This document shows positions 2,283 through 59,312 of a stretch of DNA of 64,000 nt, in pieces (positions within the stretch are counted from its first letter, which is position 1; every line of letters begins with the position of its first letter). The stretch is from positions 659-64,658 of the forward strand of contig JAPLXG010000008.1 of NCBI GenBank assembly GCA_026396175.1, in the 5' to 3' direction. This stretch comes from Candidatus Moraniibacteriota bacterium. Its GTDB lineage: Bacteria; Patescibacteriota; Minisyncoccia; Moranbacterales; UBA2206. The notes under the pieces are model-generated. The model saw only the letters and a list, made by a program, of their open reading frames with translations. It was not told the origin of the DNA and made no database searches. The position numbers were made by a program, and so were the translations under genes.

Positions 2283-2657
2283 ATGATAAAAGATCCTGAA
2301 AAGTATGATTTGGAACCGAGAACCCTAAGGTTTAGTGGAGGGGTGCTTGTTTTCATTAAGAAATTAAGCAAAGACATCATAAACACTCCGCTGATGAGCC
2401 AGCTAGTTCGCTCTGCGACTAGCATAGGCGCAAACTACTGTGAAGCTAATGGAGCAAGCTCAAAAAAAGATTTTCACAATAAAATATACATTTGCAAAAA
2501 GGAGTGCAAAGAAACAAAATACTGGCTAGAGCTACTCGCACAAGCAAACCCGGAACACAAAGAAGAAGGTAGAAAGCTCTGGAAAGAGGCTCAAGAACTA
2601 ACCTTGATATTTTCAAAAATAGCCCTAACATTAGAAGAAGACAAAAAAACCAAATAA
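2283..2657 (+). CDS. four-helix-bundle protein (23S rRNA intervening-sequence protein family)
   Basis: 124 aa. The motif 'IGANYCEANGASSKKDFHNKIYICKKECKETKYWLEL' is typical of this family. It is ~70% identical to the paralog at 42935..43306. Both are flanked by AT-rich repeats. Confidence 0.6.
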   Translation: MIKDPEKYDLEPRTLRFSGGVLVFIKKLSKDIINTPLMSQLVRSATSIGANYCEANGASSKKDFHNKIYICKKECKETKYWLELLAQANPEHKEEGRKLWKEAQELTLIFSKIALTLEEDKKTK

Positions 2658-2729: not shown

Positions 2730-3137
2730 ATGATATTCAACGTCCCCCAATTTATTGATATCGAAGACAAGCTCGTTGGGCCGCTGACGGCCAAGCAACT
2801 GGGCTGGTTGGCTTTGGGCGCTGTTGTGCTTTTGATACTTTACGGCCTTTTGGATAAATCCGCTTTTCTGCTTTCTGCTATCATTGTCGCCACAATTTCC
2901 GGAGCATTTGCTTTCTATAAACCCTACAACCAACCCCTGATCAAATTCATCACCTCCTCAATTCTGTTTGTCACCCGTCCCAAGATGTATATCTGGCGCC
3001 GTGTGCCGGAAAAAATTCAAAAAGCCAGCGCCAAAAAAGATACTGACACCAAAAAAACGACCCGAAAAACATTTGATGCCCAAAAAATAGCAGATATTTC
3101 GCAATTATTAGACATGAGAAACAATCAGAACCACTGA
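2730..3137 (+). CDS. PrgI-like small membrane protein (VirB3-like T4SS component)
   Basis: 135 aa. The N-terminus 'MIFNVPQFIDIEDKLVGPLTAKQLGWLALGAVVLLILYGL' followed by a second TM segment is the usual topology of PrgI-family proteins. It sits immediately upstream of VirB4. Confidence 0.45.
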   Translation: MIFNVPQFIDIEDKLVGPLTAKQLGWLALGAVVLLILYGLLDKSAFLLSAIIVATISGAFAFYKPYNQPLIKFITSSILFVTRPKMYIWRRVPEKIQKASAKKDTDTKKTTRKTFDAQKIADISQLLDMRNNQNH

Positions 3138-3210: not shown

Positions 3211-3236
3211 AGGCTTCTCCCTAATGGAGAAGGGGA
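3211..3236 (+). promoter_or_regulatory. SD-sequestering hairpin (CTTCTCCCTAATGGAGAAGG) ending 15 nt before the ATG at 3251
   Basis: The palindrome TTCTCCC-taat-GGAGAAG contains the only purine-rich SD-like element (GGAGAAGGGG) ahead of the start. The same motif precedes the genes at 6873 and 12403. Confidence 0.4.
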
Positions 3237-3250
3237 TATAAATAAAATTT

Positions 3251-3937
3251 ATGGAAAAACTATATTCTCAAAAACTCGCCAAACAAGCTGCGGCGTCACC
3301 GACGCAACAATATTTGGATGTGGCGGAAGTCAAAGAAGATGTGATTGTGCTTAAAAACGGATCGATCCGCGCGGTTTTAGCTGTTTCAGCGATTAACTTT
3401 GAGCTGAAATCGACTGATGAGCAAGAAGCAATCATCAGCCAATACCAAAATTTCTTGAACTCGGTGGATTTTCCTTTGCAAGTGCTCATCAGTTCGCGAA
3501 AGCTAAACATCAACACCTATTTGGATTTTCTCACCACCAAAGAAAAGCAACAAAAAACCGAGTTGATGCGTTTGCAAATTTCCGAGTATAAAAATTTCAT
3601 CACGCAATTAGTTTCGATGTCGGATATTATGGATAAAACGTTTTACCTGATTGTGCCATTTTCGCCGATTGAAAATCAAGAGAAAAGTTTTTTCAGTAAT
3701 TTTTCCAATATGATTAACCCCCAAAAGGGTATTTTAGAAAAAAGAGAAGCCTTTGAAACCTACAAAAGCCAGCTCTACCAAAGAGTCGACCACCTCACCG
3801 CCGGACTTTCCGGCATCGGCGTGAAAATCATCCCCTTAAAAACCCAAGAATTGATTGAGCTCCTCTTTAATGCCTATAACCCGACCATTTATGATACGAA
3901 GGGCTATATTGATACGGAGAAGATGGAACTTAAATGA
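3251..3937 (+). CDS. VirB4/TrbE-family conjugal-transfer ATPase, N-terminal fragment of a split gene
   Basis: 228 aa. 'VIVLKNGSIRAVLAVSAINFELKSTDEQEAIISQYQNFLNSVDFPLQV' matches the conserved N-terminal region of Gram-positive-type VirB4 (Tn916 Orf16 / TcpF / PrgJ-like). The ORF ends where the VirB4 middle domain would start. Confidence 0.55.
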   Translation: MEKLYSQKLAKQAAASPTQQYLDVAEVKEDVIVLKNGSIRAVLAVSAINFELKSTDEQEAIISQYQNFLNSVDFPLQVLISSRKLNINTYLDFLTTKEKQQKTELMRLQISEYKNFITQLVSMSDIMDKTFYLIVPFSPIENQEKSFFSNFSNMINPQKGILEKREAFETYKSQLYQRVDHLTAGLSGIGVKIIPLKTQELIELLFNAYNPTIYDTKGYIDTEKMELK

Positions 3938-4058
3938 AAATTTTCAATTTGAAATTTAAAATTTGAAATGAATTTTAAATGCTCAAATTAAATAATTTTA
4001 AATTTAGTAATTCAGATTTCATTTCAAATTTCTAATTTCAAATTTCTAATTTAAGAAG
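3938..4058. repeat. AT-rich repeat block separating the two VirB4 ORFs
   Basis: Contains 'aattttcaatttgaaatttaaaatttgaaatgaattttaaatgct'. The same ~45 nt occur in direct orientation at 5917-5962, after the second VirB4 ORF. Confidence 0.7.
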
Positions 4059-5909
4059 ATGCTAAATCTATTCGCCAAAAAAGATCCCGCCGATGTTGCT
4101 TCGGCAAAAAAACCCGCTCCAACAAAGCCCCAGGATGAGGTTTTGGAGTCGGAAAAATATTATCAGGAAGGCCTCGCCAAGCTCAACGATATTATCGCGC
4201 CGGCGGCCATTCAGATTATGCCCAAATCGATCCGCATCGGAGAAACGATTGCGCAGACGATTTTTATCATTGCCTATCCGCGCTATCTGCACAGCAATTG
4301 GTTTTCGCCGATCATAAACATTGATATGCCGATCGACATTTCGATGTTTATCCATCCAGTGGATACCTATGACATCTTGAAAACCCTCAAAAAAAGTGCC
4401 ACGCAAGTGGAATCGCAAATTCAAATCGAACAAGAAAAAGGGCTCATCAGAAATCCCTCGCTGGAAACGGCTCAGCAAGATATTGATGAACTCAGAGATA
4501 AATTGCAACAAGGCACAGAAAAATTCTTCCGTTTCGCGCTCTACATCACAGCTTACGGCGACTCCGAACAATCCGTCACCAAAAGCATCAAAAGCATCGA
4601 AGCAATTTTGGAAGCGCAATTGGTCTATGTCAAACCGGCGGTTTTCAAATCTGAACAAGGCTTCAATTCATCACTACCGCTGGCCAATGATGAACTCGAC
4701 GTGGGAACCAATATGAACAGCTCGCCCCTTTCCACAACTTTTCCCTTTGTTTCTTCCACCCTTTCATCCAACACCGGCATTCTCTACGGCATTAATCGCC
4801 ACAACAACAGTCTGATTATTTTTGACCGCTTCCAGATGGAAAATGCCAATATGGTAGTTTTTGCCAAGTCCGGTGCCGGAAAAAGTTACACCGTCAAATT
4901 GGAAGTTTTGCGTTCAATGATGGTCGGCACTGATGTGATCATCATTGATCCGGAAAATGAATACCGCCATCTTTGCGATACCGTTGAAGGCACTTTCATC
5001 AAAATTTCACTTAATTCTACAAACCATCTCAACCCATTTGATTTGCCGCGCGTCGGAGAAGAAGATGATCCGGAAGATATTTTACGCAACAACATCGCCA
5101 ACCTTTTGGGACTTTTGCACATTATGCTCGGTTCCATCACACCAGAAGAAGATTCAGTTTTGGATCGCGCCATTCACGAAACCTATTCAATCAAAGACAT
5201 TACCGCTGAGGTGGATTTTAATTCGCTCGGCAAAGATTCTTTTCCGACAATGTCTGATCTCTACCAAGTTTTGCGCAGTTTGGACGGGGGAGAAGTGTTG
5301 GCCGTTCGCTTAGAAAAATATACGGAAGGAATTTTCGCCGGCTTTCTCAACCATTCCACTAACATTAAAGTTGATAACCAATTAGTTGTTTTCAATATTC
5401 GCGATATGGAAGAGGAATTGCGACCAGTGGCGATGTATATGATTCTGCAATTCATCTGGAACGAAATGCGCACTAATGTCAAAAAGCGCATCGTGCTCGT
5501 CGATGAAGCCTGGGTGATGATGAAATATGAAGACGCCGCTTCTTTCCTGTTTGGTGTCGCCAAACGTTGCCGCAAATACTTCACCGGCCTCACCACCATC
5601 ACGCAAGATGTCAATGACTTTCTTTCTTCCCGCTATGGCAAAGCGATTGTCACAAATTCTTCTTTGCAACTACTCTTAAAACAATCTCCTGCCGGCATTG
5701 ATGTCATTTCCGACACATTCTATCTCACTGATCAAGAAAAATTCTTACTCCTCGAAAGCAACGTCGGCGAAGGCATTTTCTTTGCCGGCACCAATCATGT
5801 CGCCATCAAGGTGGTCGCGTCCTATTCTGAAGACCAAATCATCACCACCGATCCGTCGCAACTGCTAGACATTGAAAGGGCGAAGAAAGAATTTGCCGAG
5901 GAAGAATAA
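4059..5909 (+). CDS. virB4: VirB4/TrbE-family T4SS ATPase (middle + ATPase domains)
   Basis: 616 aa. Walker A 'SGAGKSYTVK' and Walker B 'IVLVDEAWVMM' are present. The N-terminal portion 'IAPAAIQIMPKSIRIGETIAQTIFIIAYPRYL' continues the VirB4 architecture begun in 3251..3937. Confidence 0.8.
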   Translation: MLNLFAKKDPADVASAKKPAPTKPQDEVLESEKYYQEGLAKLNDIIAPAAIQIMPKSIRIGETIAQTIFIIAYPRYLHSNWFSPIINIDMPIDISMFIHPVDTYDILKTLKKSATQVESQIQIEQEKGLIRNPSLETAQQDIDELRDKLQQGTEKFFRFALYITAYGDSEQSVTKSIKSIEAILEAQLVYVKPAVFKSEQGFNSSLPLANDELDVGTNMNSSPLSTTFPFVSSTLSSNTGILYGINRHNNSLIIFDRFQMENANMVVFAKSGAGKSYTVKLEVLRSMMVGTDVIIIDPENEYRHLCDTVEGTFIKISLNSTNHLNPFDLPRVGEEDDPEDILRNNIANLLGLLHIMLGSITPEEDSVLDRAIHETYSIKDITAEVDFNSLGKDSFPTMSDLYQVLRSLDGGEVLAVRLEKYTEGIFAGFLNHSTNIKVDNQLVVFNIRDMEEELRPVAMYMILQFIWNEMRTNVKKRIVLVDEAWVMMKYEDAASFLFGVAKRCRKYFTGLTTITQDVNDFLSSRYGKAIVTNSSLQLLLKQSPAGIDVISDTFYLTDQEKFLLLESNVGEGIFFAGTNHVAIKVVASYSEDQIITTDPSQLLDIERAKKEFAEEE

Positions 5910-6056
5910 GTGACATAATTTTCAATTTAAAATTTGAAATTTAAAATGAATTTTAAATGCTATAATTTTTAAAATTTAAATTTTTCTAGTTTGGATTTGA
6001 ATTAAAATTTTTTGCTTCAAGCTTATCCTTTGAGGGCAAATTTAAAATTAAGAGTT
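5910..6056. repeat. AT-rich repeat block plus the conserved 'ttgcttcaagcttatcctttgagggcaaattta' motif
   Basis: Direct copy of the 3941-3985 repeat. The 3' motif recurs at 43338-43375 (ttgctccaatcttatcctttgaggacaaattta). Confidence 0.65.
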
Positions 6057-6623
6057 ATGTCTCAAGAAGAAGAAAATCAAAAACGCTTAGAAGCGCAGAG
6101 AGAGGCTGATGAGGAAAACAACAGGGCACGAGAAACAAGTCAGCAAAAAAAGAGTCTGCGAAAATTAGCCAGCGAAATCGCTAGAGAAGCGGGAGTGACG
6201 GATACCGAGCATCTCCGGAAGTTTATCAGGCTCATAGATATTTTTTTTGCTGTTGCTATAATGACTTCTTTGCTGAAGGACATCTTTGATTTTCTCGGCA
6301 ATGCCATTCCCTATCTATACCTCATCTGTGTCGTTTTTGCTTTTATGGCGTCAATTGTCACCTGGGCAGCTATGCTTATTTGCGGAGCTGGCCTGCGTCA
6401 GCACAAAAGAAGATCGCTGATGAAAAGCATTTTTACCCGCAATAAATTAGCCATTCTATTCGCTGGTACTATTCTTGAAATACTCCCTATCCTAAATTTT
6501 TTTCCCATAGAAACAGTTACCACATTCGCTATTTTCATTTTAATTTTGAAAGAAAGAAGAGAAAGCGCCGCGGAAGAGGAAAGAGAAACTGCTCAACTGG
6601 CTAATGTTTATGCGCAAATTTAA
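6057..6623 (+). CDS. hypothetical membrane protein with charged N-terminus and 3-4 TM helices
   Basis: The start was moved to the internal ATG at 6057 (MSQEEENQ...), directly after the repeat motif; the upstream part of the track ORF lies inside the repeat. Hydrophobic segments FFAVAIMTSLL, YLYLICVVFAFMASIVTWAAMLIC and LAILFAGTILEILPI. Confidence 0.45.
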   Translation: MSQEEENQKRLEAQREADEENNRARETSQQKKSLRKLASEIAREAGVTDTEHLRKFIRLIDIFFAVAIMTSLLKDIFDFLGNAIPYLYLICVVFAFMASIVTWAAMLICGAGLRQHKRRSLMKSIFTRNKLAILFAGTILEILPILNFFPIETVTTFAIFILILKERRESAAEEERETAQLANVYAQI

Positions 6624-6625
6624 TT

Positions 6626-6866
6626 CCTCCTCGCCCTTAGGGAGAGCCCGCCTGCCGGTAGGCAGGGATGTCCGGAGGACAGGTGAGGCTACGGAATAGT
6701 TTTTTCAATACCTCTTCTCCCTTAGGGAGAGGATGTCCGTAGGACAGGTGAGGGAAGGGGCGTAGAAAAAAAGAAAACAATATTTAAATAGTGCCGGTTG
6801 ATTATTGAAAGGCTCTTCCCTCATCCGCCCTCCGGGCACCTTCTCCCTAAGGGAGAAGGGGATATA
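6626..6866. repeat. composite GC-rich hairpin element, copy a
   Basis: Contains the CCTGCCGGTAGGCAGG palindrome, two 'CTCTTCTCCCttaGGGAGAGGATGTC(N)GACAGGTGAGG' units and the 'ccctcatccgccctccgggcaccttctccctaagggagaagggga' module. Homologous copies lie at 12228-12402 and 59086-59312. Confidence 0.7.
6841..6866 (+). promoter_or_regulatory. SD-sequestering hairpin (TTCTCCCTAAGGGAGAAGG) 11 nt upstream of the ATG at 6873
   Basis: Same palindrome as at 3211 and 12367. GGAGAAGGGG lies in the 3' arm of the stem. Confidence 0.4.
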
Positions 6867-6872
6867 AACAAA

Positions 6873-7544
6873 ATGTACCCGAAATTAACCCCAAAAAATA
6901 AACAAACCTTTTTCAAGACCAATCAGGAGTTGCTGGTCGGTTTTGGCGTCGCGCTTGTTTGCCTTTTTTCCAGCTTTATTTTCCCCGCGCAAAATACCGC
7001 GCAAATTATCACGAGAAATTTATTTTTTCTCGTTCTTCTTCCGGCGGCATACATAAAAATAATCCTCGGAAAAGACCTGGCTGATTTTGGTTGGAATTTG
7101 GAAAATAAAAAAGTGGCTTTGCCTTGGAGTATCGGCACGACACTTTTTACCCTACTCATTTTCTATTTGATGTTAAATTATACCGGACTCAAAACCGGCT
7201 ATGTTTTGGCGAGTTACCTGAAAAATAGCTTTTGGCTATTCCTTGCCTATGAACTGCTTGCAATCAATTTTGTCGTTTTTGTTTTCAGTTATTTTTTTCA
7301 AGGCTTCATTCTTTCCCTTTTTCAAAAGGAGTTTAGCCACTTCGCCATTGCCCTCCAAACCGTGCTATTTGTCCTGGCCATTTTTCTCGCCAAAGCACTC
7401 GCCTGGCAAACCGCGCCTTTCATTTTGCTTTCCGTCACAGCCGGCTTTCTCGCCTGGAAAACCAGATCATTTTTTTATTCGTATTTTATGAGTATTTTTG
7501 CTATAATAATTTTGGACGCTTATATTATTTATCTTACTAAATGA
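6873..7544 (+). CDS. polytopic membrane protein (possible T4SS channel component), function unknown
   Basis: The start was set at 6873 (MYPKLTPKNK) after the hairpin; the track ORF start at 6798 reads through the repeat. About 6-7 hydrophobic helices. No CPBP or other catalytic motifs recognised. Confidence 0.45.
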   Translation: MYPKLTPKNKQTFFKTNQELLVGFGVALVCLFSSFIFPAQNTAQIITRNLFFLVLLPAAYIKIILGKDLADFGWNLENKKVALPWSIGTTLFTLLIFYLMLNYTGLKTGYVLASYLKNSFWLFLAYELLAINFVVFVFSYFFQGFILSLFQKEFSHFAIALQTVLFVLAIFLAKALAWQTAPFILLSVTAGFLAWKTRSFFYSYFMSIFAIIILDAYIIYLTK

Positions 7545-10444
7545 AAACGGGGCTTAAAAAAACAATAATCACTTTTTTGGTTATTATTAATATTTTTTCG
7601 CTGACCACACAGACAGCTCACGCCGATCTTTTGGGCGTTGCCTTGGGCAATCCAATGGCTCTTATGGATACCGTCATGAGCGCATTTGGTGTTAATAAGG
7701 ATGAAATTCAAAACATGATGCAGACGGTCAATGTCGCCAGGAAGAAGGTCACTCCTCCGACAGTTTCAATTACTTTTAATCCGACTAATCCCGTGCCCGG
7801 AGAAAAGGTAGCCGTTACCGCCGCGCCAACCTATTTTATGAATTCTCCTGAAAACCTCTACTATACCTGGTACCTAAAAAGTGCCAAATGTTTTGCCGCA
7901 AAGGACCTGGACTCAAATGGACATGAATATGGAGATGATTATAAAAAACAATACGCATCCCAAGAAGATTTTGACAAATGCGATCTTAATGGTGACGGCA
8001 AAGTTGACATTGAAGACTACAAAATTAAAGCCGCTCGCATTTTAGTTAACAATGATTTCGTCTGGCAATCTGCCGATTACTCCAAGGATACTGATAATGA
8101 CGGGTATACGGCAGTTTTTGGTGGTGATGACCAAAGAGGAAAAAGCGAACACTGCTTCATTCATGATGTTGCGAGTGGTGATGATCATGAGATAAAATGC
8201 GAAAAGCATCTCTTTCCCAACGCTCCCAGTGACAAAACCGGTGATGGAACTTTTGGTGCCAGCGAAGAACAATTTTGGCACACCAATCCAAATAATAATG
8301 ACACTGCCGGCACGGGTCGCACTGATGAAGCCAATGTCGCGGGACTAGGAGAAAATGTTTTTTCCCTTATCTACTCGGCCGGAGATAAGGTTGGTGTTGC
8401 TATAGAAGGCGTTTCTATCCAACCAACCCAGGAAAAGGATTCGTCCTATGAAACGATGTGGGCATTTACTAAAAATGAGTGCGGCAATAAAGACAACATT
8501 GGCGCTAGCACGGATAATTCCGGCTATCCAAAAACAACTGGCAATACAACCACGACCTATCCAAACACAAAAGCGGATCACAGCGTCACCCCTGGAACTC
8601 CTCCAACGCTCTACTCCGCCACGGATTATTTGACCACCGTCACAATAAAAACTGTCGAGGATATCGCTCCCGGCACAAGTCAAGTCAATGACAATGCTAC
8701 CATTAGAACGACGACGACGACCCATACTGTAGTAACTTATGTCGGCACGGACCCTGCCATCCTTGCAACCAATCCCATCTTAGATGAAATGACCACAAGC
8801 AATACTTGCTCGCAACTTGAGGCTGAAAATGGGGCTGTTTGTTCTGGAACGGATGAATACAAATCAATTAAAATGACTGCTATGGCTACGAATGACCTAA
8901 ATGATTGTCTCTATAACAATCTCATCACGCCAGCCGAAGGAGGAGGGACAAAGGAAAAATTAGATGTCGCCCTGAAATATTTACCGGAAAGTCCCACCAA
9001 TGATTCCAGTGACCCTCCCGCCGACTACAAAACGGGTGATCCCAAGGGAGATGGAGATCAAGTTTCTCTTGATGCAACCGTTGCTAATCCCAATAGCGCC
9101 TCCTATCTCAACTACACCTGGGAAGTTTATGCCAGCAACGAAATTAACCCCGATGATTGGGGAACAGCAATTTCCAAAGATAAATTAGATGGCGCAACGC
9201 AAATGTCCGGACTTGGTGTGAGCAATCTCAAGTTTAATCTCAACTTTAAATCAACCGATTTTCCGCCAGCTAACGTGCTACCAAAATACCTAAAGGTAAA
9301 AGTAACCGCCAAAGAAACGCTGGCTGAAGGGAGCGGAGAGAGAGAGGGCCACACTGATATCACTATCCCCATTTCTTCCTCAGAAGAAAGAATTAGAGTC
9401 TACACAGCGAAAGTCAATGCGGACAATATCAATTTCCCAGCCGAAAAGACTGACAAGGCCGGGCTAGCCGCCCAAGAGAGATGCTTATTTACCGATCCGA
9501 AAAGTAACGTGAAATCACCATCGGCTGTTTGTGAAGTAGCCAAAGATGAAATTATTGGCGTGGGCATTGACGACGGAACCGAAAGTGATCCCACCTACAC
9601 TGATTTTCTTTGGACCATCGACGGCGCAACGCAGGCTTGCCCAAATGACAGTTTTTCACTTTGCATTGACAAAGATGGTAAATCAACTGACCGCACTTAT
9701 TTTCCCATCCTCAAAGAACCCGGTGATCAATATGCGATCGAATTGTCTGCGCTCAATAAAAAAACCGGCGAACGAGTAGATTTGACGAGGATGTTCAAAG
9801 TTTCCACGCCGGAAGCCAAGATTGTGCCAAAAGAAAAAGATGCTTCGGATAAATATATTTGTCGCGGATTGCTTTTAGGACAATATCTAGATTTTTACGG
9901 CCAACCGCACGATGATCGCAGTGACACAAAATTTCAAGCCCTGACCGGAAATAATATCGAACTCTATCCGGTTTTTTCCGGAACAACCGCACCAACTAAA
10001 TTCGCTAATGCGACTGATTGCCCCTATGAGTGGACCGTTGATGGCCAAAATATAAATGCTGGAAACGCCACTACCTTTGGTTATAGCATCGACCTGAATG
10101 ATTCAGGAAAATTAATCCTACCCCCGAAAAATGCCGGAGAAAAATATGTTATTTCTTTTTCCGATGTCTTCACTCCCACCAACGCCACAAAACAAATGCT
10201 TAACAAATTTTGGAATATCACCTATAATCAGTTCTATGAAAAGAAATTGACGCACAACATTGAAATTGAAATGGTGGACACCACAATTGCCCAAAAAACT
10301 AATTCACCGGCAAAAATTTTCGCCACCGTTTCTTCCGGCATCCCGAGCTATTTCGCCTTTCTTTTCCGCATTGCCCTTGCCGGACTAGCCATCATCCTCG
10401 CCATAAAAATCATATTTTTCATTCTGCCCAAGAGAGAGTTATAA
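7541..10444 (+). CDS. large secreted surface protein with C-terminal membrane anchor and dockerin/EF-hand-like Ca-binding motifs
   Basis: 967 aa. N-terminal signal peptide (MKTGLKKTIITFLVIINIFSLTTQTAHA). 'DLNGDGKVDIEDYKI' resembles a dockerin-type Ca-binding loop. Thr/Asn/Asp-rich. C-terminal TM 'IALAGLAIILAIKIIFFIL'. Embedded in the pilus/T4SS-like cluster. Confidence 0.6.
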   Translation: MKTGLKKTIITFLVIINIFSLTTQTAHADLLGVALGNPMALMDTVMSAFGVNKDEIQNMMQTVNVARKKVTPPTVSITFNPTNPVPGEKVAVTAAPTYFMNSPENLYYTWYLKSAKCFAAKDLDSNGHEYGDDYKKQYASQEDFDKCDLNGDGKVDIEDYKIKAARILVNNDFVWQSADYSKDTDNDGYTAVFGGDDQRGKSEHCFIHDVASGDDHEIKCEKHLFPNAPSDKTGDGTFGASEEQFWHTNPNNNDTAGTGRTDEANVAGLGENVFSLIYSAGDKVGVAIEGVSIQPTQEKDSSYETMWAFTKNECGNKDNIGASTDNSGYPKTTGNTTTTYPNTKADHSVTPGTPPTLYSATDYLTTVTIKTVEDIAPGTSQVNDNATIRTTTTTHTVVTYVGTDPAILATNPILDEMTTSNTCSQLEAENGAVCSGTDEYKSIKMTAMATNDLNDCLYNNLITPAEGGGTKEKLDVALKYLPESPTNDSSDPPADYKTGDPKGDGDQVSLDATVANPNSASYLNYTWEVYASNEINPDDWGTAISKDKLDGATQMSGLGVSNLKFNLNFKSTDFPPANVLPKYLKVKVTAKETLAEGSGEREGHTDITIPISSSEERIRVYTAKVNADNINFPAEKTDKAGLAAQERCLFTDPKSNVKSPSAVCEVAKDEIIGVGIDDGTESDPTYTDFLWTIDGATQACPNDSFSLCIDKDGKSTDRTYFPILKEPGDQYAIELSALNKKTGERVDLTRMFKVSTPEAKIVPKEKDASDKYICRGLLLGQYLDFYGQPHDDRSDTKFQALTGNNIELYPVFSGTTAPTKFANATDCPYEWTVDGQNINAGNATTFGYSIDLNDSGKLILPPKNAGEKYVISFSDVFTPTNATKQMLNKFWNITYNQFYEKKLTHNIEIEMVDTTIAQKTNSPAKIFATVSSGIPSYFAFLFRIALAGLAIILAIKIIFFILPKREL

Positions 10445-10465
10445 AATTAGGATTTACGCGCTTGT

Positions 10466-10556
10466 GTTATTCGAGACATTAGGGTGCTTATTCGTAAATT
10501 AGAGTCGCTTTATTACGGCGACACTAATACTCGAATTTACACGCTAATGACCCAAA
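10466..10556. repeat. ~80-nt palindromic intergenic element, copy 1
   Basis: 'cattagggtgcttattcgtaaattagagtcgctttattacggcgacactaatactcgaatttacacgctaatgaccc'. The reverse complement occurs at 25322-25396. Confidence 0.65.
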
Positions 10557-10593
10557 TATGATTGAACCGTGTAAGTCCTGAGAATAAAAAAAT

Positions 10594-11679
10594 TTGATGA
10601 ATTTAAAACTAAAACAAAAAATTGTCCTAGCAATCCTTGCTTTTTTGCTGGTTTTTATTCCTTCGGTATCAAAAGCAACTAGCTGTAGTTGTGCCAATGG
10701 TAGCGTAGTTTATTATACTGGTGTAGGTGAGGCCGCTGATGTGTCCACTAGCGCAGACTGCGACCAGACCTGTGCCAACCGCGGTGCAAATCTTTATTTT
10801 TACAATGCGAGCACATTTCCTTCTAGCGTTACAAAAACACCAACCACCCCACCAGCAAACCCCACTGGCACATCTTCTCCGCAAACACCGGTAGCCTCAA
10901 ACGTCAAATATCCCTACACCCCCATGGAAGCAATTCCCGGGTTTCCCAAAACCGGATCGATGATAGACTACGTTTTGCAAATTTATCAATTTGGCCTCTG
11001 GACAATCGGAATCGCCGCCGTGTTTATGATTTCCATCGGCGCCTTTATGTATATCACCAGCGCCGGAAACACCAGCCAAATGGGCAAAGCCAAGGAGGTT
11101 ATTTTCGACGCCATTATCGGCGTCATCCTCGCCCTCACGTCCTATGTGCTGCTCAACACCATCAACCCCGCGCTTGTTCAGATTGGTGGTGGGGATTATA
11201 GTACCACTGGCGGAGGTGGAACTGGTGGCGGAGGTGGATCGGGTGGTGGAGGTGGAGGAGGTGGTAGCTGCACACCAGTAACCAGTGGCCCATGTTCAGT
11301 TGATCAATTAACTGGAAGTTGTTTTGACGGAATAGCCGATCTTTCAAAAATTTCATCTCTCTGTAATGCAGAAAGTGGCGGTGTTAATATTCCCAGTACT
11401 GTAGATATATGCACCGACAGAACAACCTACTTTTCATGCGGAGCGTTGCAAGTCAACCTAACCTGTGCATGCAAAGGAACGAATGCGTTCACTGGGGCAG
11501 AGCCGTCCACTGGTTGCGCAAATTCTAACTGCACAGGACCAGGAATAAATTATACGTCATGCACCAGTCAAACCTGCAGTGGCAGTGGAAACATAACGGC
11601 GGCCTGTAAGGCATACAAAGAACATTCGGGAAATAAATATGATACGTGGACAAAGAATAGCACCTGTGGTTTCTCATAA
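10594..11679 (+). CDS. VirB2/TrbC-like pilin with poly-Gly linker and Cys-rich C-terminal domain
   Basis: 361 aa. Signal peptide, then the two-helix pilin core 'AIPGFPKTGSMIDYVLQIYQFGLWTIGIAAVFMISIGAFMYITSAGNTSQMGKAKEVIFDAIIGVILALTSYVLLNTINPALV', then 'GGGGTGGGGGSGGGGGGGG', then ~150 aa containing about 16 Cys. Confidence 0.55.
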   Translation: MMNLKLKQKIVLAILAFLLVFIPSVSKATSCSCANGSVVYYTGVGEAADVSTSADCDQTCANRGANLYFYNASTFPSSVTKTPTTPPANPTGTSSPQTPVASNVKYPYTPMEAIPGFPKTGSMIDYVLQIYQFGLWTIGIAAVFMISIGAFMYITSAGNTSQMGKAKEVIFDAIIGVILALTSYVLLNTINPALVQIGGGDYSTTGGGGTGGGGGSGGGGGGGGSCTPVTSGPCSVDQLTGSCFDGIADLSKISSLCNAESGGVNIPSTVDICTDRTTYFSCGALQVNLTCACKGTNAFTGAEPSTGCANSNCTGPGINYTSCTSQTCSGSGNITAACKAYKEHSGNKYDTWTKNSTCGFS

Positions 11680-11700
11680 AATTATTTATAAATTTATCAT

Positions 11701-12219
11701 ATGAGCTCAAAAAAGAAACTTTTTATTAGTATCGCATTTTTATTAGTTCTTGCGCTGATATTAATATTTTGGTTTTCTAAAAAAAACACGTCGTCCTCCA
11801 GCGCCACTCAAACTACGAGCGTGAACGGCCTACCTATTATTCATGGAGAGAAGCCCGCTATCTCAATAAACACATTCGACATAACCACAAGAGATGGAAT
11901 AATTACAATTAATAATATCTATAAATTACCCGGCGTCATACTTTTGGATTTTGATGGGGTAAATTTCAAAAATTCTCAATACTACCACATGGAATATTAC
12001 CCAAAACAACAAGGTTTTATTATTGCCATACTTGACCCAGCTATCCAAAAAGCTAGAGAAATAGCAGAAAGTGACTTTCTTGAAGTGCTTAATATAACCC
12101 AGGATCAGGCTTGCAAACTCAATATATCGCTTACTGTGCCACCAAGCGTCAATGGACGGGCTAGCGGGGGAAATTACGGTCTCAGTTTTTGCCCCAATGG
12201 AAAAGCTTTTCCGAAATAA
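11701..12219 (+). CDS. hypothetical N-terminally anchored secreted protein
   Basis: 172 aa. TM/signal 'LFISIAFLLVLALILIFWF'. No recognisable domains. Confidence 0.4.
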   Translation: MSSKKKLFISIAFLLVLALILIFWFSKKNTSSSSATQTTSVNGLPIIHGEKPAISINTFDITTRDGIITINNIYKLPGVILLDFDGVNFKNSQYYHMEYYPKQQGFIIAILDPAIQKAREIAESDFLEVLNITQDQACKLNISLTVPPSVNGRASGGNYGLSFCPNGKAFPK

Positions 12220-12227
12220 CTAACCCG

Positions 12228-12402
12228 CATCTTCTCCCCCTCGGGAGAGGATGTCACGAGCACGTGACAGGTGAGGGCAAGGGCTATATTACTTGGGGAA
12301 CGCGTTATTATAGAGAGCCAATAAAATTTTTCAAAAGCCCTTTCCCTCATCCGCCCTCCGGGCACCTTCTCCCTAATGGAGAAGGGGATTCAAATTAAAC
12401 CT
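12228..12402. repeat. composite GC-rich hairpin element, copy b
   Basis: 'cttctccccctcgggagaggatgtcacgagcacgtgacaggtgaggg ... ccctcatccgccctccgggcaccttctccctaatggagaagggga'. Homologous to 6626-6866 and 59086-59312. Confidence 0.7.
12367..12392 (+). promoter_or_regulatory. SD-sequestering hairpin (CTTCTCCCTAATGGAGAAGG) upstream of the ATG at 12403
   Basis: Third occurrence of the same palindrome placed directly 5' of a start codon. Confidence 0.4.
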
Positions 12403-13320
12403 ATGCAAAAAACTCTAAAAAAAATAAATTTAAACAAAGCTGCTATTTTTTCTTTTTTTGTCTTTCTTTTTCTCTTTACTTTCAATAAAGCCAACGCCGC
12501 CGGTCTCGTTCCTTGCGGGCTGGGTGCCAGTGATCCCTGCACGCTTTGCCATTTTATCGTGGGAATTAAGGGTCTGATTGATTGGGGAATGAGCATCATC
12601 ATTGCCGTTTCCATCGCGGGAATTTCTATCGCCGGCGTACTCTATGTCCTTTCCTCTGGCAGTTCTACGCTCACCACCCAAGCCAAGGGCTTCATTACAA
12701 GCGTAGTAATCGGCTTTTCGCTCTTTCTTGGGGCATGGCTCATCATCAACACTACATTTTATTTACTTTCCGCCAAAAAAGACGATACCAGCGGCACCTA
12801 TAATCTTGGCCTCACAAGCAAAAGCTGGAATTCTTTTTCTTGCTCAACTACTAGCTCTACAATGGGAGTTTTACCTCCCACCACTGACGCAACCATAGCT
12901 GATTATAATTGCGACAAGCTCACCTTTCAAACATCTGCTGTAAAAAACCAATGCAATGATGCTTCTTCCGCTCTGCAAACAATGATTGTATGCATGAGAA
13001 ACAAGCTCGGCACCAAGATGACCATCAATTCCATTTCTGATAATAACGGGGGCGGCACCAAATGCTATCAAACTTATCCCAAGGGGCCGCAATGCGTCAA
13101 TGATGCGGACACTAACTGTTGCCACCATGCCGTAAGCTCATGTCATTACGGAGGGGTAAATGTAGGAAATTCCGAGGCAGTTGATATTTCCACTACCACA
13201 GGGCTAACTGTTGATAACATAATTACCGCCGCTAACGCATGCAACGCTGGATATACTAAAGATGAATCTGTCAACTATAATCACGTACACGTCAGTACCA
13301 CTAATTGTAGAAAAGATTAG
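12403..13320 (+). CDS. second VirB2/TrbC-like pilin with Cys-rich C-terminal domain
   Basis: The start was set at 12403 (MQKTLKK) after the hairpin. Signal peptide, then the pilin core 'GIKGLIDWGMSIIIAVSIAGISIAGVLYVLSSGSSTLTTQAKGFITSVVIGFSLFLGAWLIINTTFYLL', then a C-terminal region with about 13 Cys. Confidence 0.5.
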   Translation: MQKTLKKINLNKAAIFSFFVFLFLFTFNKANAAGLVPCGLGASDPCTLCHFIVGIKGLIDWGMSIIIAVSIAGISIAGVLYVLSSGSSTLTTQAKGFITSVVIGFSLFLGAWLIINTTFYLLSAKKDDTSGTYNLGLTSKSWNSFSCSTTSSTMGVLPPTTDATIADYNCDKLTFQTSAVKNQCNDASSALQTMIVCMRNKLGTKMTINSISDNNGGGTKCYQTYPKGPQCVNDADTNCCHHAVSSCHYGGVNVGNSEAVDISTTTGLTVDNIITAANACNAGYTKDESVNYNHVHVSTTNCRKD

Positions 13321-13381
13321 CTTTTCTATTCCACATCGCTACAAAAAAATCGGAGCTAAGCTCCGGATTCTCTCAATTTTT

Positions 13382-14530
13382 ATGTCCACCAGTAAAAAAA
13401 TCTTTTTAATCTCGCTCACTCTTTTTTGCGTTGCGCTTCTGTTTTTTGGCATCTATAATTTCGCTTTCAAAAAACCCACTGCAGTCACTCCGGTGGTGGA
13501 ACAAAAGGCACCGGCCGTTGTTACCCCACAAGTTGTGCCAAAAGTTAGCACTGACCCCATCGCCACCATCTCTGACGAAGCGGTACTCGCGCCGACACTA
13601 GTTAGTGGCACCAACGCCGTTAAATATTATTCCAGAAATAGCGGGCGAGTTTATCAGATTGATTTTGATGGCAACAGCAAGAGAACGCTCTCTGATAAAG
13701 AATTAATTGGCCTGAGTGCTGTGCTTTGGTCACCGGACAAAAATAAAGTAATCACAAAATTTGTGAGCGCCGGGACAACAAAATTCTATGCCTATGACTA
13801 TACTAGCCTACAAAGCACGCAGCTGAAAAACAATGTTGATGAAATTGCTTGGCAAAATACGGGTAATCGAATTTTCTATAAATATTATGACGCCGCTACC
13901 AAAAAAAGAACGCTGAACATTTCCGACCCTGATGGCACCAACTGGACAAAATTGGCGGACATTGATTTTCGCAATATTTCTATCGCGCAAATTCCCCAGA
14001 GTGGCCTCGTTTCTTTTTGGAATAAACCAGATGCTTTTTTTGAGACCACATTAAAATCCGTTCCGCTGATCGGAGGAGAAGAAAAGGTACTCCTAAAAGG
14101 CGTTTTTGGCGCGGATTATCTTTGGAATGCGAACGGAACGGCGGCACTCGTTAGCCACTCCGATGCCAAGGGTGGCACAAAAATCCAGCTTTCACTTATC
14201 AATTCTAACGGCGGAGAATTTAGAGATCTTAACTTGCCTTCATTTGCCTCTAAGTGCGCTTGGGCAAAAGACAATAGAACCATCTATTGCGCAATGCCCG
14301 GTGAAGTTCCCGCTTCCGCTATTTTGCCCAATGACTATGACCAAGAAAAATTTCATACTGCCGACACTTTTTGGAAGATTGACACCACCACCGGAGAAAA
14401 AAATCGTATTATCGATTTGAATAAAATCACCAATAAATATGATGCCACAGATCTTTTCCTCAATGCCGATGAAAGCATCTTGTTTTTCACTAACCGCACC
14501 GACGGAAAACTCTATCGCATAACTCTCTAA
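13382..14530 (+). CDS. secreted/anchored PD40 (TolB-like) beta-propeller repeat protein
   Basis: The start was set at the internal ATG 13382 (MSTSKKIFLISLTLFCVALLFFGIY), which is a TM anchor. 'WSPDKNKVITKF' and 'NRIFYKYYDAATKKRTLNISDPDGTNWTKL' are PD40-like blades. Confidence 0.45.
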   Translation: MSTSKKIFLISLTLFCVALLFFGIYNFAFKKPTAVTPVVEQKAPAVVTPQVVPKVSTDPIATISDEAVLAPTLVSGTNAVKYYSRNSGRVYQIDFDGNSKRTLSDKELIGLSAVLWSPDKNKVITKFVSAGTTKFYAYDYTSLQSTQLKNNVDEIAWQNTGNRIFYKYYDAATKKRTLNISDPDGTNWTKLADIDFRNISIAQIPQSGLVSFWNKPDAFFETTLKSVPLIGGEEKVLLKGVFGADYLWNANGTAALVSHSDAKGGTKIQLSLINSNGGEFRDLNLPSFASKCAWAKDNRTIYCAMPGEVPASAILPNDYDQEKFHTADTFWKIDTTTGEKNRIIDLNKITNKYDATDLFLNADESILFFTNRTDGKLYRITL

Positions 14531-21943: not shown

Positions 21944-22081
21944 CTAGACTGTTGTCAATTTTGCGCGACCCTTTCTTCTTCGCGCTTTTAGCACGTTTTT
22001 TCCCGAAGGAGTGCTGTTTCTCTCGATAAAACCATGGCTTCTTTTCCTTTTAATGCTTTTCGGTTTGTATGTTACGCTCAT
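21944..22081 (-). CDS. rpmH: 50S ribosomal protein L34
   Basis: Not in the ORF track because it is 45 aa. Translation of the minus strand gives MSVTYKPKSIKRKRSHGFIERNSTPSGKNVLKARRRKGRAKLTTV*, a canonical L34, in the conserved rpmH-rnpA arrangement. The plus-strand ORF 22011..22271 is its antisense shadow. Confidence 0.75.
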   Translation of the reverse strand: MSVTYKPKSIKRKRSHGFIERNSTPSGKNVLKARRRKGRAKLTTV

Positions 22082-22490
22082 TTATTTAACCTTTAAACTA
22101 TTTATAACTAACCAATTAGAAGTTTATCAATTATTCGCCAAAAAGTCAATCAAAAAGCCTTTTTTGTCTCGCAACCACCACAAGGCCTACCGCCAACCCA
22201 AAAGCAAGCTTCTCTATAGCCAAGTTTTAGCAAAGAAAAAACTGGCAAGCTTAAGGGCTCTAAAAAAATAAAGGTAGGCTCAAAAATACCCCGCGCTTTG
22301 AAGATTGCTTTTGGGCTGGGCCTAAGCCTTGAGTCAATCTTCGCTAACACTTGCTTTTTTTGTTTTTTTATATTAGCTTTAAATCATATTAACAGCTTAT
22401 CCCCAGGTTCTAAACGTTCCTCCCATATTGTCTTTTTTTGCTTTATGCTATACTTTTTCTAAGTAAGCATCTTTTATTTCATCAATCAAA

Positions 22491-23867
22491 ATGACCAACG
22501 AAGAACTCTGGCAATCAGCGCTTAATGAAATAGAGTTGTCTATTTCTAAGGCCAACTTTATCACCTGGCTCAAGGGGACTAGGATTATTTCTAACACGGA
22601 AGGAAAAATTGTTATTAGTGTTCCCAATGGTTTTGCCAAGGAATGGTTGGAAAATAAATATAACGCCTACATCCTGAAAGCTTTGCGCAACATCCAACCA
22701 GACATTAAATCCGCCACCTGCCTTATCGCCACACCCAAAGAAGAATATCTTCCCCGCAAAGAATCAATGATGGATGCGATCATTGCTCCGCAAAAAAATG
22801 ATTCGCGCATAGAAAAAAAGAATTTTACGGTAAACATCGAAAATAATCTTAACCCCAAATATACTTTTGAAAATTTCATCATTGGCGGAAATAATGAACT
22901 AGCACACGCCGCTTGCGTAGCAGTATCCCAAAATCTTGGTAAAATCTATAACCCGCTTTTCATTTATGGCGGAGTGGGCCTCGGGAAAACCCACCTCATC
23001 CAATCAATCGGCAACAAAATCCTCGAGAAAAACCCTGCGTTTAAGGTAAAATACATCACTTCAGAAAGATTCACCTCCAACCTAATTGACGCCCTGCAAA
23101 ACCAAAAAATCAATGAGTTTAAGGAATATTACCAAAAAATGGATATCCTGATTATTGATGATATTCAGTTCATTTCCGGCAAAGAAAAAACGCAGGAAGA
23201 ATTTTTTCACATTTTCAATTATCTCTACCAGCTCAACAAGCAAATCGTGCTTAGTAGTGATCGTCCACCCAAATCGATTCAAATCCTTGAGGAAAGATTA
23301 CGTTCGCGCTTTGAAGGAGGAATGATTGCGGACGTCTCCAGCCCAGACCTAGAAACGCGCCTCGCGATTTTGAGAAAAAAAGTAGCCGATGAAGAGCTGG
23401 AAATCAGTGAGGACGCCTTGCTTTTTGTCGCTACTAACATCAAAAATAATATCCGCGAACTAGAAGGTGCCCTAAACCGACTAATTGTCTCTTCTCAATT
23501 GACCGGCGCGGAAATAACTGTCGCCTTTGCTAAAAACCAACTGTCCGAGCTAATTTCCAGTGGGATTAAGAAAGGTATCACACCAAAACACATCATTAAA
23601 GCCGTTTCTGCTTTTTATGACATTGACCAAAATGATCTGGTTTTGAAAAATCGTAAAAAAGAAATTGTCAGACCCAGGCAGGTGGCAATGTACCTACTGC
23701 GCAGTGAGATAGATTTTTCCTATCCTGGTATTGGTGAAAAGTTAGGCGGGAGAGATCACACAACAGCCATCCACGCTTTTGAAAAAATTTCTAAAAACCT
23801 CCTAACCGATGCCAAGTTAAATGAAGAAATTGCTCAAATTAAAAACCAACTTTACAAATTAGACTAA
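22491..23867 (+). CDS. dnaA: chromosomal replication initiator DnaA
   Basis: 458 aa. Walker A 'GGVGLGKTHL', 'IDDIQF' and the C-terminal DNA-binding domain 'RQVAMYLLRSEIDFSYPGIGEKLGGRDHTTAIHA'. Confidence 0.9.
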   Translation: MTNEELWQSALNEIELSISKANFITWLKGTRIISNTEGKIVISVPNGFAKEWLENKYNAYILKALRNIQPDIKSATCLIATPKEEYLPRKESMMDAIIAPQKNDSRIEKKNFTVNIENNLNPKYTFENFIIGGNNELAHAACVAVSQNLGKIYNPLFIYGGVGLGKTHLIQSIGNKILEKNPAFKVKYITSERFTSNLIDALQNQKINEFKEYYQKMDILIIDDIQFISGKEKTQEEFFHIFNYLYQLNKQIVLSSDRPPKSIQILEERLRSRFEGGMIADVSSPDLETRLAILRKKVADEELEISEDALLFVATNIKNNIRELEGALNRLIVSSQLTGAEITVAFAKNQLSELISSGIKKGITPKHIIKAVSAFYDIDQNDLVLKNRKKEIVRPRQVAMYLLRSEIDFSYPGIGEKLGGRDHTTAIHAFEKISKNLLTDAKLNEEIAQIKNQLYKLD

Positions 23868-24134
23868 TTACTTGTGGATAAGTTGTTGTAAACCATCGCA
23901 AAACACTTTTCTCGCATATTCCACTCTTGTGGATAACTTGGCTAAATAAAAAATTAAATCTCAAAACAACCACCCGAGCCACCACTTATCCGAGACAAAA
24001 AATCAATCCTATCCACCAAACACTCACAACCATTTCCCCTCAGTTAAGCGATATTTCAGACTTATCCACAACTTTCCTTTTTATAATAATAACAATAATA
24101 ATTTTATATTAATTAATAAAATACTAATACCCCC
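23868..24134. promoter_or_regulatory. oriC: DnaA-box cluster plus AT-rich unwinding element in the dnaA-dnaN intergenic region
   Basis: Perfect DnaA boxes TGTGGATAA at 23873-23881 and 23929-23937, and TTATCCACA at 24062-24070. Imperfect boxes at 23986-23994 and 24009-24017. AT-rich run 24080-24130 (ttataataataacaataataattttatattaattaataaaatactaat). Confidence 0.65.
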
Positions 24135-59085: not shown

Positions 59086-59312
59086 CTCCTCGCCCTCCGG
59101 GAGAGGATGTCACGAGCACGTAACAGGTGAGGCTACGGAATAGTCTCTTCAATTCCTCTTCTCCCCTCGGGAGAGGATGTCATGTACTCATGACAGGTGA
59201 GGGACAGGCAATAGGTTAAGGATAGCTTAATATAAAATTAGTGTTTGGTATTTTTCAGACACACCCTCATCCGGCTTTCAGCCACCTTCTCCCGGAGGGC
59301 GAAGGGGATACA
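59086..59312. repeat. composite GC-rich hairpin element, copy c
   Basis: Two GGGAGAGGATGTC(N)GACAGGTGAGG units plus the 'ccctcatccggctttcagccaccttctcccggagggcgaagggga' module, followed by an ATTCGTA tandem motif that is also seen at 46628-46672. Confidence 0.7.

Follow-up and report, generated by a model that had tools for sequence, protein, structure and literature searches.

The subject of this analysis is a 64,000-nucleotide (nt) stretch of DNA from a Candidatus Moraniibacteriota bacterium (contig JAPLXG010000008.1), which we refer to as the window, and within it two genes of a type IV secretion system (T4SS) cluster, whose products we call P1 (10594..11679) and P2 (12403..13320). Both genes, with all of the parts described below, lie on the plus strand. 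A preliminary description of this DNA had taken the two proteins to be VirB2-like pilins that display Cys-rich adhesive or host-recognition tips. Our analysis points instead to a VirB2-like pilin module combined with a C-terminal domain that resembles a cell wall hydrolase, lysozyme/SLT_3-like in P1 and Hedgehog/DD-peptidase (LAS)-like in P2. We consider it likely that P1 and P2 are pilin-anchored peptidoglycan hydrolases and the equivalent of VirB1, one of them cutting glycan and the other peptide. This reading is based on how the domains are arranged, on the catalytic-type residues that are conserved, on links of homology, on the neighbouring genes, and on a pattern of fusions that runs through the whole family.

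Both open reading frames (ORFs) exist as they were originally delimited, and they are conserved genes with homologues and 100% identical database proteins. P1 is 361 residues long when read from a TTG codon, has 50 homologues, and keeps its synteny in three related loci (L001–L003). The identical database protein, P0001, is 360 residues long; the true start of P1 is therefore probably the ATG at 10597. P2 is 305 residues long, with a predicted local distance difference test score (pLDDT) of 83.7 for its AlphaFold model. It corresponds to P0051 and is 100% identical to the NCBI hypothetical protein NTY33_02480 from a metagenome-assembled genome of ‘Candidatus Moranbacteria bacterium’.

P1 starts with a signal peptide (residues 1–28, 10594..10677), which was recognized as a hydrophobic window at residues 3–32, and whose cleavage site was placed by eye between SVSKA and TS, using the −3/−1 rule. 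There follows an N-terminal extension (residues 29–105, 10678..10908), which in sequence consists of a 4-Cys module and a Pro/Thr-rich linker. This 77-residue module, between signal peptide and hairpin, was overlooked in the preliminary description. It is variable, being present in some orthologues only (P0005, P0015, P0023, and P0031), and the extension has a pLDDT below 50 in the AlphaFold model. The VirB2-like hairpin (residues 106–196, 10909..11181) has a conserved YTPME-IPGF lead-in and two transmembrane helices, located by hydropathy at approximately residues 130–158 and 167–195, and in the AlphaFold model at 123–155 and 160–190. The Pfam T4SS_pilin family PF18895 matches residues 135–189 of this region with E = 2.6e-4 to 8.5e-4, which is below its cut-off. 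A poly-Gly linker (residues 198–225, 11185..11268), in which 20 of 28 residues are Gly and pLDDT is 28–29, then leads to the C-terminal lysozyme/SLT_3-like domain (residues 226–361, 11269..11676). Linkers of this type differ in both length and composition among the aligned homologues. The C-terminal domain has 136 residues, of which 14 are Cys, a pLDDT of about 85, and putative catalytic residues at E260-S261 and G283-x-x-Q286-x-N288.

The plan of P2 is similar. Its signal peptide (residues 1–32, 12403..12498) forms a hydrophobic window, is modelled as a helix at residues 10–28, and would be cleaved between NKANA and AG. The VirB2-like module (residues 33–121, 12499..12765; PF18895 E = 0.016, below cut-off) has two transmembrane helices, at approximately residues 51–87 and 95–120 by hydropathy and at 48–83 and 88–123 in the AlphaFold model. 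Directly ahead of the first of these is a near-invariant motif, VPCG-x6-C-x2-CH (C38, C46, C49, and H50; residues 33–53, 12499..12560), which might form a small knot of disulfides or bind a metal. A Ser/Thr-rich linker (residues 122–170, 12766..12912; pLDDT 60–71), with 18 Ser or Thr among its 49 residues and with conserved W142 and C147, connects the hairpin to the C-terminal LAS-like domain (residues 171–305, 12913..13317). This domain is modelled with a pLDDT of 90–98 and has a candidate zinc site formed by H248, D261, and H296, with H242, H294, and E288 as accessory residues.

Several features first noted by eye are thus borne out: a signal peptide and a two-helix hydrophobic core in each protein, seen both in the hydropathy windows and in the AlphaFold models, where both hairpins appear as a long helical hairpin, and the runs of Gly in P1 and of Ser/Thr in P2. 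The C-terminal regions, for which disorder had been considered, are predicted to be folded. They are also rich in cysteine as described, but the numbers given for them (about 16 and 13) were too high. P1 has 18 Cys, comprising the 14 in residues 226–361 and four in the N-terminal extension, and P2 also has 14 Cys in all, 11 of them in residues 140–305 and three just ahead of the first helix. Overall Cys content is 4.99% in P1 and 4.59% in P2, compared with 0.66% in the 42 other large ORFs of the window, and the enrichment in the C-terminal domains has binomial P = 6e-13 for P1 and 2e-8 for P2.

Classical VirB2 pilins are single-domain proteins of about 70–130 residues that polymerise into a pilus. 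At 361 and 305 residues, and with their extra folded domains, P1 and P2 are not pilins of this small single-domain kind. The hairpins of P1 and P2 are homologous to each other (BLASTP E = 1e-5; E = 3.5e-8 and 9.3e-11 when each is searched with the hidden Markov model (HMM) of the other), and by these comparisons the two are paralogous VirB2-like proteins. The earlier proposal that their hydrophobic core aligns with TrbC/VirB2 profiles holds at the level of the family and through the company of VirB4 and PrgI genes, while P1 and P2 themselves remain below threshold. PF18895 is matched by 20 of 23 relatives of P1, 36 of 42 relatives of P2, and 110 of 141 representatives of the P2 C-terminal domain family, the best with E = 6.6e-12. 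The TrbC/VirB2 family PF04956 is matched by three of the 42 P2 relatives and by seven proteins in another set of relatives (best E = 4.7e-6), and a large family profile gives weak, non-significant matches to Agrobacterium VirB2 chains. Because of the family-level matches to PF18895, the few to PF04956, and the position in a VirB4/PrgI cluster, we accept, at the level of homology, that P1 and P2 carry a pilin hairpin of VirB2/TrbC type. When family HMMs were run over the 64-kb window, P1 and P2 were the only ORFs found to contain a pilin domain, and no stand-alone pilin was detected there. The T4SS_pilin family PF18895 has been catalogued for Patescibacteria (PMC12102498).

The C-terminal domain of P1 was characterized mainly through its family. 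After the pilin module, many of the 50 homologues have a match to PF18896 (SLT_3, ‘Lysozyme like domain’) or PF01464 (SLT), and SLT_3 is matched by nine of the 23 relatives that were aligned, with a best E of 7.7e-9. Eight non-Cys residues (E260, S261, G263, D271, S281, G283, Q286, and N288) are invariant in the 23-sequence alignment, together with eight cysteines. Glu-Ser, followed some 20 residues later by G-L-x-Q, is the signature of family-1 lytic transglycosylases, and we take the equivalent of E260-S261...G-x-x-Q-x-N in hen lysozyme to be E35-S36...G-I-L-Q-I-N. In the AlphaFold model, E260 is at the C-terminal end of a helix (residues 250–261), followed by a beta element and then by further helices; this order (helix, Glu, beta, helices) is presumably that of the lysozyme fold.

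SLT_3 can be bridged to the canonical SLT family by P0095, since a single stretch of this protein matches both SLT (E = 3.8e-15) and SLT_3 (E = 6.9e-5), and since hhalign places the E-S...G-L-x-Q-x-N residues of the P1 family in register with ICQESSG...SCGLMQVN of P0095 (P = 6e-4, probability 29%). Proteins in the orthologous position, among them P0015 and P0027, carry a canonical SLT domain in place of the P1 domain. One of these, P0015, shares the unusual N-terminal Cys module of P1. Judged from its family, the C-terminal domain of P1 looks like a lysozyme or lytic transglycosylase domain of the SLT_3 type.

For P2, an exhaustive profile search with the C-terminal domain was made over 1.84 billion representatives. 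It defined a family of 754 proteins at E ≤ 1e-3, of which 597 have E ≤ 1e-10 and 66 have E ≤ 1e-30 (all counted as cluster representatives at 50% identity), and among these matches the domain is nearly always C-terminal. We sampled 141 representatives, from clusters at 50% identity, for analysis of conservation and Pfam content. S246, H248, D261, H294, and H296 are invariant in this set, H242 (at least 90%) and an S-I-S-D motif are near-invariant, and the family alignment has a Glu 3–6 residues ahead of H294. No Pfam family matches the C-terminal domain in either the 42 or the 141 relatives.

The only matches obtained in the PDB with profiles of the P2 domain are Hedgehog N-domains, with E = 0.012 for a 26-sequence profile and 0.0047 for the 141-sequence profile, and with a bias of approximately zero. 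The alignment pairs ‘aH..SCHYGG..AVD’ of P2 with ‘HH..SLHYEG..A(V/L)D’ of Hedgehog, and ‘E..NHVHVS’ with ‘ESRNHVHVS’, so that H242, H248, D261, and H294/H296 of P2 align with the conserved His, Asp, and His-x-His of Hedgehog. These Hedgehog residues are, we assume, the zinc ligands H141, D148, and H183 and the accessory residues H135, E177, and H181, in Shh numbering. The real match scores 17.6 bits, compared with 8.7 bits for the best of 3000 shuffled controls. A Foldseek search with the P2 model also returned a single non-trivial match, the Shh N-domain 6oev_C, with probability 0.97 over 149 columns. Bacterial members of the Hedgehog/DD-peptidase fold are peptidoglycan peptidases. We conclude from sequence and model that the C-terminal domain of P2 is a putative zinc hydrolase of LAS type.

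Two further sets of matches were discarded. The full-length P2 profile matched ‘Pizza’ designer propellers, by way of several weak matches to a short AG-x-Y-x-S-x-GN pattern in the pilin loop; no single stretch was significant, and the matches were gone when a C-terminal-only profile was used. A raw sequence search of the PDB with P1 found only the engineered Gly-Ser linkers of single-chain variable fragment constructs, an artefact of the poly-Gly linker. The corresponding search with P2 found no match, nor was there any PDB match to a profile of the N-terminal half of the P1 domain.

The fusions seen across the family link the two domains to wall hydrolysis. P0168 comprises a pilin module (residues 66–133), an SLT domain (265–360), and a LAS-like domain (405–532) within one chain, and P0221 likewise combines all three. 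The pilin module is also found fused to NlpC/P60 and to canonical SLT domains. There are thus four kinds of wall hydrolase domain that occur C-terminal to it: SLT_3, SLT, NlpC/P60, and the Hedgehog/DD-peptidase-like domain.

A number of results weigh against this interpretation. P1 scores 19.8–21.4 bits and P2 15.7 bits against PF18895, both short of the curated cut-off of 26.6 bits. P1 itself matches neither SLT_3 nor SLT in Pfam, even when the C-terminal domain is searched alone at E values up to 10, and Foldseek searches of the full-length P1 model against the PDB and BFVD gave no lysozyme or SLT structure. The matches obtained there were helical-hairpin noise, including the Aeropyrum conjugation pilin 8dfu at a non-significant E of 3.9. 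When the P1-family profile is compared directly with the canonical SLT domains of orthologues, by hhalign and hmmsearch, or with hen lysozyme, only the short G-L-x-Q motif aligns, with a probability below 2%. The connection of P2 with LAS enzymes is of low absolute strength: the best E value from sequence is 0.005, and the Foldseek match to the Shh N-domain has E = 0.048 and a target-normalised TM-score of 0.40. No M15 peptidase family is matched in the 42 or the 141 members of the P2 family, and a profile search directed toward annotated M15 peptidases returned only the same pilin-fused family. The spacing from His to Asp is 13 residues in P2 and 7 in Hedgehog, and the closest relatives of P2 with solved structures are animal Hedgehog ligands, not proven peptidases.

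Three other explanations have to be weighed against a pair of wall-cutting enzymes. The C-terminal domain of P1 could be RNase A-like rather than lysozyme-like, and thus a bacterial member of the pancreatic ribonuclease superfamily. The profile of this domain family (alignment A3) does match bovine RNase A in the PDB, with E = 1.8e-4 to 1e-3 for single-domain chains and 2.6e-7 for tandem RNase A constructs, and the alignment spans residues 19–111 of RNase A with six cysteines matched. The score is carried by these Cys-Cys pairs, however, with a bias of 10–11 bits, and one of 3000 shuffles reached 19.5 bits against 22.8 bits for the real match. No His is conserved in the P1 family, nor is a Lys at the column aligned with the residue that we take to be Lys-41 of RNase A. 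The model of P1 is helical at residues 320–343, where the aligned part of RNase A is presumably beta-sheet, and although there are hundreds of RNase A chains in the PDB, none was among the Foldseek matches of the P1 model. From the shuffles, the conserved residues, and the secondary structure of the model, we rejected this match as an artefact of Cys composition, albeit an unusually good one to have arisen by chance, and regard an RNase A-like fold as extremely unlikely. The interpretation offered in the preliminary description, in which the Cys-rich modules are knottin- or EGF-like heads on pilin subunits that act non-enzymatically in adhesion or host recognition, has several points in its favour: the modules are extracellular by predicted topology, folded, rich in Cys, and held on flexible tethers; the variable 4-Cys module of P1 could be a binding knob; LAS/Hedgehog-type domains in animals are known to act as ligands instead of enzymes; and hydrolase folds that have lost catalysis are often reused as glycan binders. 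Against it, conservation in both families extends beyond the cysteines to residues of catalytic type (E-S and G-x-x-Q-x-N in P1; H, D, and H-x-H in P2), and in relatives the corresponding position is occupied by SLT and NlpC/P60 domains that are clearly enzymes. Searches of Pfam, of the PDB, and of folds gave no knottin, EGF, or adhesin family for either protein, and the C-terminal domains are single units of 135–165 residues with helices and strands, not repeated Cys-knot units of 30–50 residues. We therefore think it improbable that these domains are simply adhesive tips.

It is also conceivable that P1 and P2 are wall-degrading effectors, directed against other bacteria or against the host, and that the gene between them encodes the cognate immunity or inhibitor protein. 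This gene (11701..12219, plus strand) was identified as an ORF for a 172-residue protein with a predicted membrane anchor, and has a 146-residue orthologue in L001–L003. Bacteria-killing T4SSs are reported in a review to pair peptidoglycan hydrolase effectors with adjacent immunity genes. A gene for an intervening protein of 146–172 residues is present in all four loci in which the first pilin is of SLT_3 type and in neither of the two with canonical SLT (L004 and L005), a very small sample for an argument of this sort; its product may act specifically on the SLT_3-type enzyme, as a partner or an inhibitor. Patescibacteria, moreover, live as epibionts that depend on a host, and one species cannot grow epibiotically without its T4SS (PMC10633639). 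The Sec signal peptides and the integral two-helix hairpin of P1 and P2 are nevertheless unlike the build of known T4SS effectors, and the hairpin is homologous to structural pilins. A role as effectors is in our judgement unlikely, although it overlaps with the explanation that we prefer: the enzymes would be the same, and only their target and role would differ.

We therefore return to P1 and P2 as hydrolases serving their own T4SS, and suggest how they might work. For the topology, the enzymatic activity, the substrate, the wall that is cut (the producer's own or the host's), and polymerisation we offer predictions. After Sec export and cleavage of the signal peptide, the N-terminus would be outside; the first helix would run inward, the short basic, Lys-containing loop would be cytoplasmic, and the second helix would run outward, with the hairpin sitting in the membrane or in a pilus-like assembly. 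A cytoplasmic loop and an outward second helix would put the C-terminus, the tether, and the enzyme domain on the extracytoplasmic side, a location that fits the high content of conserved Cys in these domains. There, the flexible Gly- or Ser/Thr-rich tether would hold a compact, disulfide-stabilised enzyme domain. With its SLT_3-type domain and putative catalytic Glu-Ser, P1 would cleave peptidoglycan in its glycan strands, while P2, as a zinc-dependent LAS-type peptidase, would cut peptide stems or cross-links. The pilin hairpin would target both enzymes to the T4SS, so that a glycosidase and peptidase pair, split over two genes, could open a path for it through the cell wall.

A bolder form of this proposal is that P1 and P2 would polymerise as true VirB2 subunits, the only ones that the lineage has, giving a short pilus or conduit studded with tethered glycan- and peptide-cutting enzymes. 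Such a structure could digest its way through the peptidoglycan of the host or of the producer and so make the connection between epibiont and host. The geometry is plausible, since VirB2 and TraA pili of known structure expose the C-terminus on the outside, and no stand-alone pilin is present in this locus; in L006, described below, a fused pilin heads a row of short ones. We nevertheless regard this form as doubtful.

The surrounding genes, all on the plus strand, belong to a T4SS. A PrgI/VirB3-like membrane protein (2730..3137; PF12666 PrgI, E = 1.3e-9) is followed by a split VirB4 (3251..5909), comprising a 228-residue TraC-like N-terminal piece (3251..3937) and a 616-residue ATPase (4059..5909), identified by NF045971 (VirB4-like, CD1110 family; E = 1.6e-112) and PF19044 (E = 2e-30). 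Since a 228-residue orthologue that matches the TraC-like family PF26593 is present in both L001 and L003, the split is conserved and did not arise as an error of assembly. Next are two polytopic membrane proteins (6012..6623 and 6798..7544) and a 967-residue surface protein with a C-terminal anchor (7541..10444), all recognized by transmembrane prediction and found in the same order in L001 and L003. Downstream of P2 is a membrane-anchored beta-propeller-like protein (13382..14530), with a weak TolB/DUF5050-like match (E about 1e-4, below cut-offs), which is the last conserved same-strand gene of the cluster. It probably starts at an internal Met, residue 41 of a 422-residue ORF; its orthologues in L001 and L003 are 381–383 residues long. 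Judged by its PrgI and split VirB4 genes, the cluster is a monoderm-type T4SS that matches the published description for Patescibacteria, in which the T4SS is a relative of the monoderm MPF-FATA class and is often located near dnaA (PMC12102498). In the window, a minimum in cumulative GC skew (about 22000..24000) lies beside dnaA (22491..23867), adjoined by genes for YidC and an R3H protein, and this places the T4SS cluster near the replication origin, some 10 kb from dnaA. In L001 and L003, rnpA and rpmH flank the dnaA spot.

The arrangement is conserved elsewhere. L001 and L003, which are Moraniibacteriota-type contigs, have the same gene order, with a TrbL_3/VirB6-like gene ahead of it, and a gene for a pilin with a glycosidase domain (SLT_3 or SLT) followed by one for a pilin with a LAS domain is kept in five related loci. 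A different array is seen in L006 (CAYTED010000006.1, approximately 9941..13505), a record labelled ‘uncultured Bdellovibrionales’, possibly through an error of binning or labelling. Here P0095, a P2-like pilin with a canonical SLT domain, heads a row of short pilins of 123 and 124 residues, together with two ORFs of 265–270 residues that contain pilin domains, one of them having two such domains.

We note two other features of the cluster. Between two of its genes, at 2283..2657, is a gene for a four-helix-bundle protein of the type found in 23S rRNA intervening sequences (PF05635, E = 8.7e-18); L001 and L003 lack it at this position, and L003 has a GIY-YIG gene nearby instead. The window also contains a repeat of about 55 nt with a palindromic core, CCTTCTCCC-N3-5-GGAGAAGG, which gives eight strand matches compared with 0.02 expected. 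Copies are located on the plus strand at 3213..3233, 6839..6859, and 12365..12385, with a diverged copy at 59285..59305. The first three end approximately 15–20 nt upstream of start codons of the T4SS cluster (3251, about 6870, and 12403, the last being that of P2). The repeat RNA is predicted to fold with energies between −21 and −33 kcal/mol (z-scores −1.7 to −4.1). A scan of the window with Rfam found no families, and hence no match to the repeat. Because its 3′ arm (GGAGAAGGGG) resembles a Shine-Dalgarno sequence, the hairpin could sequester the ribosome-binding site, or it could be some other regulatory site.

VirB2-like pilins of Patescibacteria and VirB1-like hydrolases are already known, as is the SLT_3 family in Pfam. 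A survey of 3,035 Patescibacteria genomes published in 2025 found VirB2-like pilins in most of the genomes that have a T4SS and VirB1-type hydrolases in few of them, and concluded that pilus biogenesis there apparently does not need VirB1 (PMC12102498). Our results suggest that in many lineages the hydrolase is hidden in genes annotated as ‘pilin’ or ‘hypothetical protein’. In the literature searched, we found no report that many ‘pilins’ are pilin-hydrolase fusions, of a large pilin-tied Hedgehog/DD-peptidase-like family that is unannotated in Pfam, or of what these would imply for the reported absence of VirB1. If our interpretation is true, the list of T4SS components in Patescibacteria would be read differently, and a sizeable new domain family with a putative zinc site would be defined. 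It would also provide a handle on how ultrasmall epibiotic bacteria breach cell walls, a step tied to a T4SS that is essential in one species of Patescibacteria.

Compared with known systems, P1 and P2 share with VirB2, TrbC, and TraA pilins, including the PF18895 pilins of Patescibacteria, a signal peptide, a hairpin of two hydrophobic helices joined by a short polar loop, and a location beside genes for VirB4 and VirB3-like proteins. Classical pilins have no extra domain, whereas P1 and P2 add enzyme-like domains of 135–165 residues on long tethers, and P1 alone adds an N-terminal module. A similar design, in which a filament-subunit module is grafted to a C-terminal globular functional module, is reportedly found in the modular type IV pilins PilB and PilC of Streptococcus sanguinis. 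Those pilins are of an unrelated superfamily (type IV pili, not VirB2), and their modules are adhesive (vWA and lectin), not hydrolase-like.

LAS metallopeptidases (MEROPS M15, including VanX, VanY, zinc D-Ala-D-Ala carboxypeptidase, and phage L-Ala-D-Glu peptidases) and the Hedgehog N-domain share with P2 the His...Asp...His-x-His pattern, the upstream His, and the Glu. It is to Hedgehog that the P2 residues align one for one, and Hedgehog is likewise the top Foldseek match. The P2 domain differs from these in having no Pfam match to M15 or Hedgehog, in its many conserved cysteines, and in being confined to Patescibacteria-type proteins, where it is almost always fused to a pilin module.

In conjugation systems of monoderm bacteria, hydrolases such as CwlT, TraG of pIP501, and PrgK have both activities, glycosidase and peptidase, within one VirB1-like chain. 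VirB1, CwlT of ICEBs1, TraG of pIP501, PrgK of pCF10, and TcpG of pCW3 have in common with P1 and P2 that they are encoded within a T4SS cluster and have an N-terminal membrane anchor. The extracellular domains of the monoderm proteins are peptidoglycan hydrolases that cleave glycan and peptide, as is predicted for P1 and P2. Their anchor is a single transmembrane helix, in contrast to the VirB2-like hairpin of P1 and P2, and their two activities are in one protein, whereas here they would be divided between two (chains that combine pilin, SLT, and LAS domains do exist elsewhere). Their peptidase is of CHAP, NlpC/P60, or LytM type, in place of the LAS type of P2, and a glycosidase of the Cys-rich SLT_3 type, as in P1, is unlike those of monoderm T4SSs. 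The combination of glycosidase and peptidase domains in membrane-anchored hydrolases of monoderm T4SSs has been described (PMC12102498).

The only T4SS of Patescibacteria to have been studied genetically is that of Ca. Southlakia epibionticum. Here SEML1_0006 has two lysozyme-like domains and a cysteine-proteinase domain, and SEML1_0007 has a C-terminal Hedgehog/DD-peptidase domain, assigned with Sonic hedgehog as template (PMC10633639, supplementary tables). Both genes are within the T4SS cluster, just downstream of virB4, and both are essential for epibiotic growth (PMC10633639). The T4SS of Southlakia and that of the window are thus alike in having lysozyme-like and Hedgehog/DD-peptidase-like domains encoded in the cluster, the latter identified by the same structural template. 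They differ in how these domains are carried: in Southlakia they belong to large proteins that are not pilins, and short genes of their own (SEML1_0014–0019) encode the pilins, whereas in the window the locus has just two pilin-like genes, and it is to these that the domains are fused.

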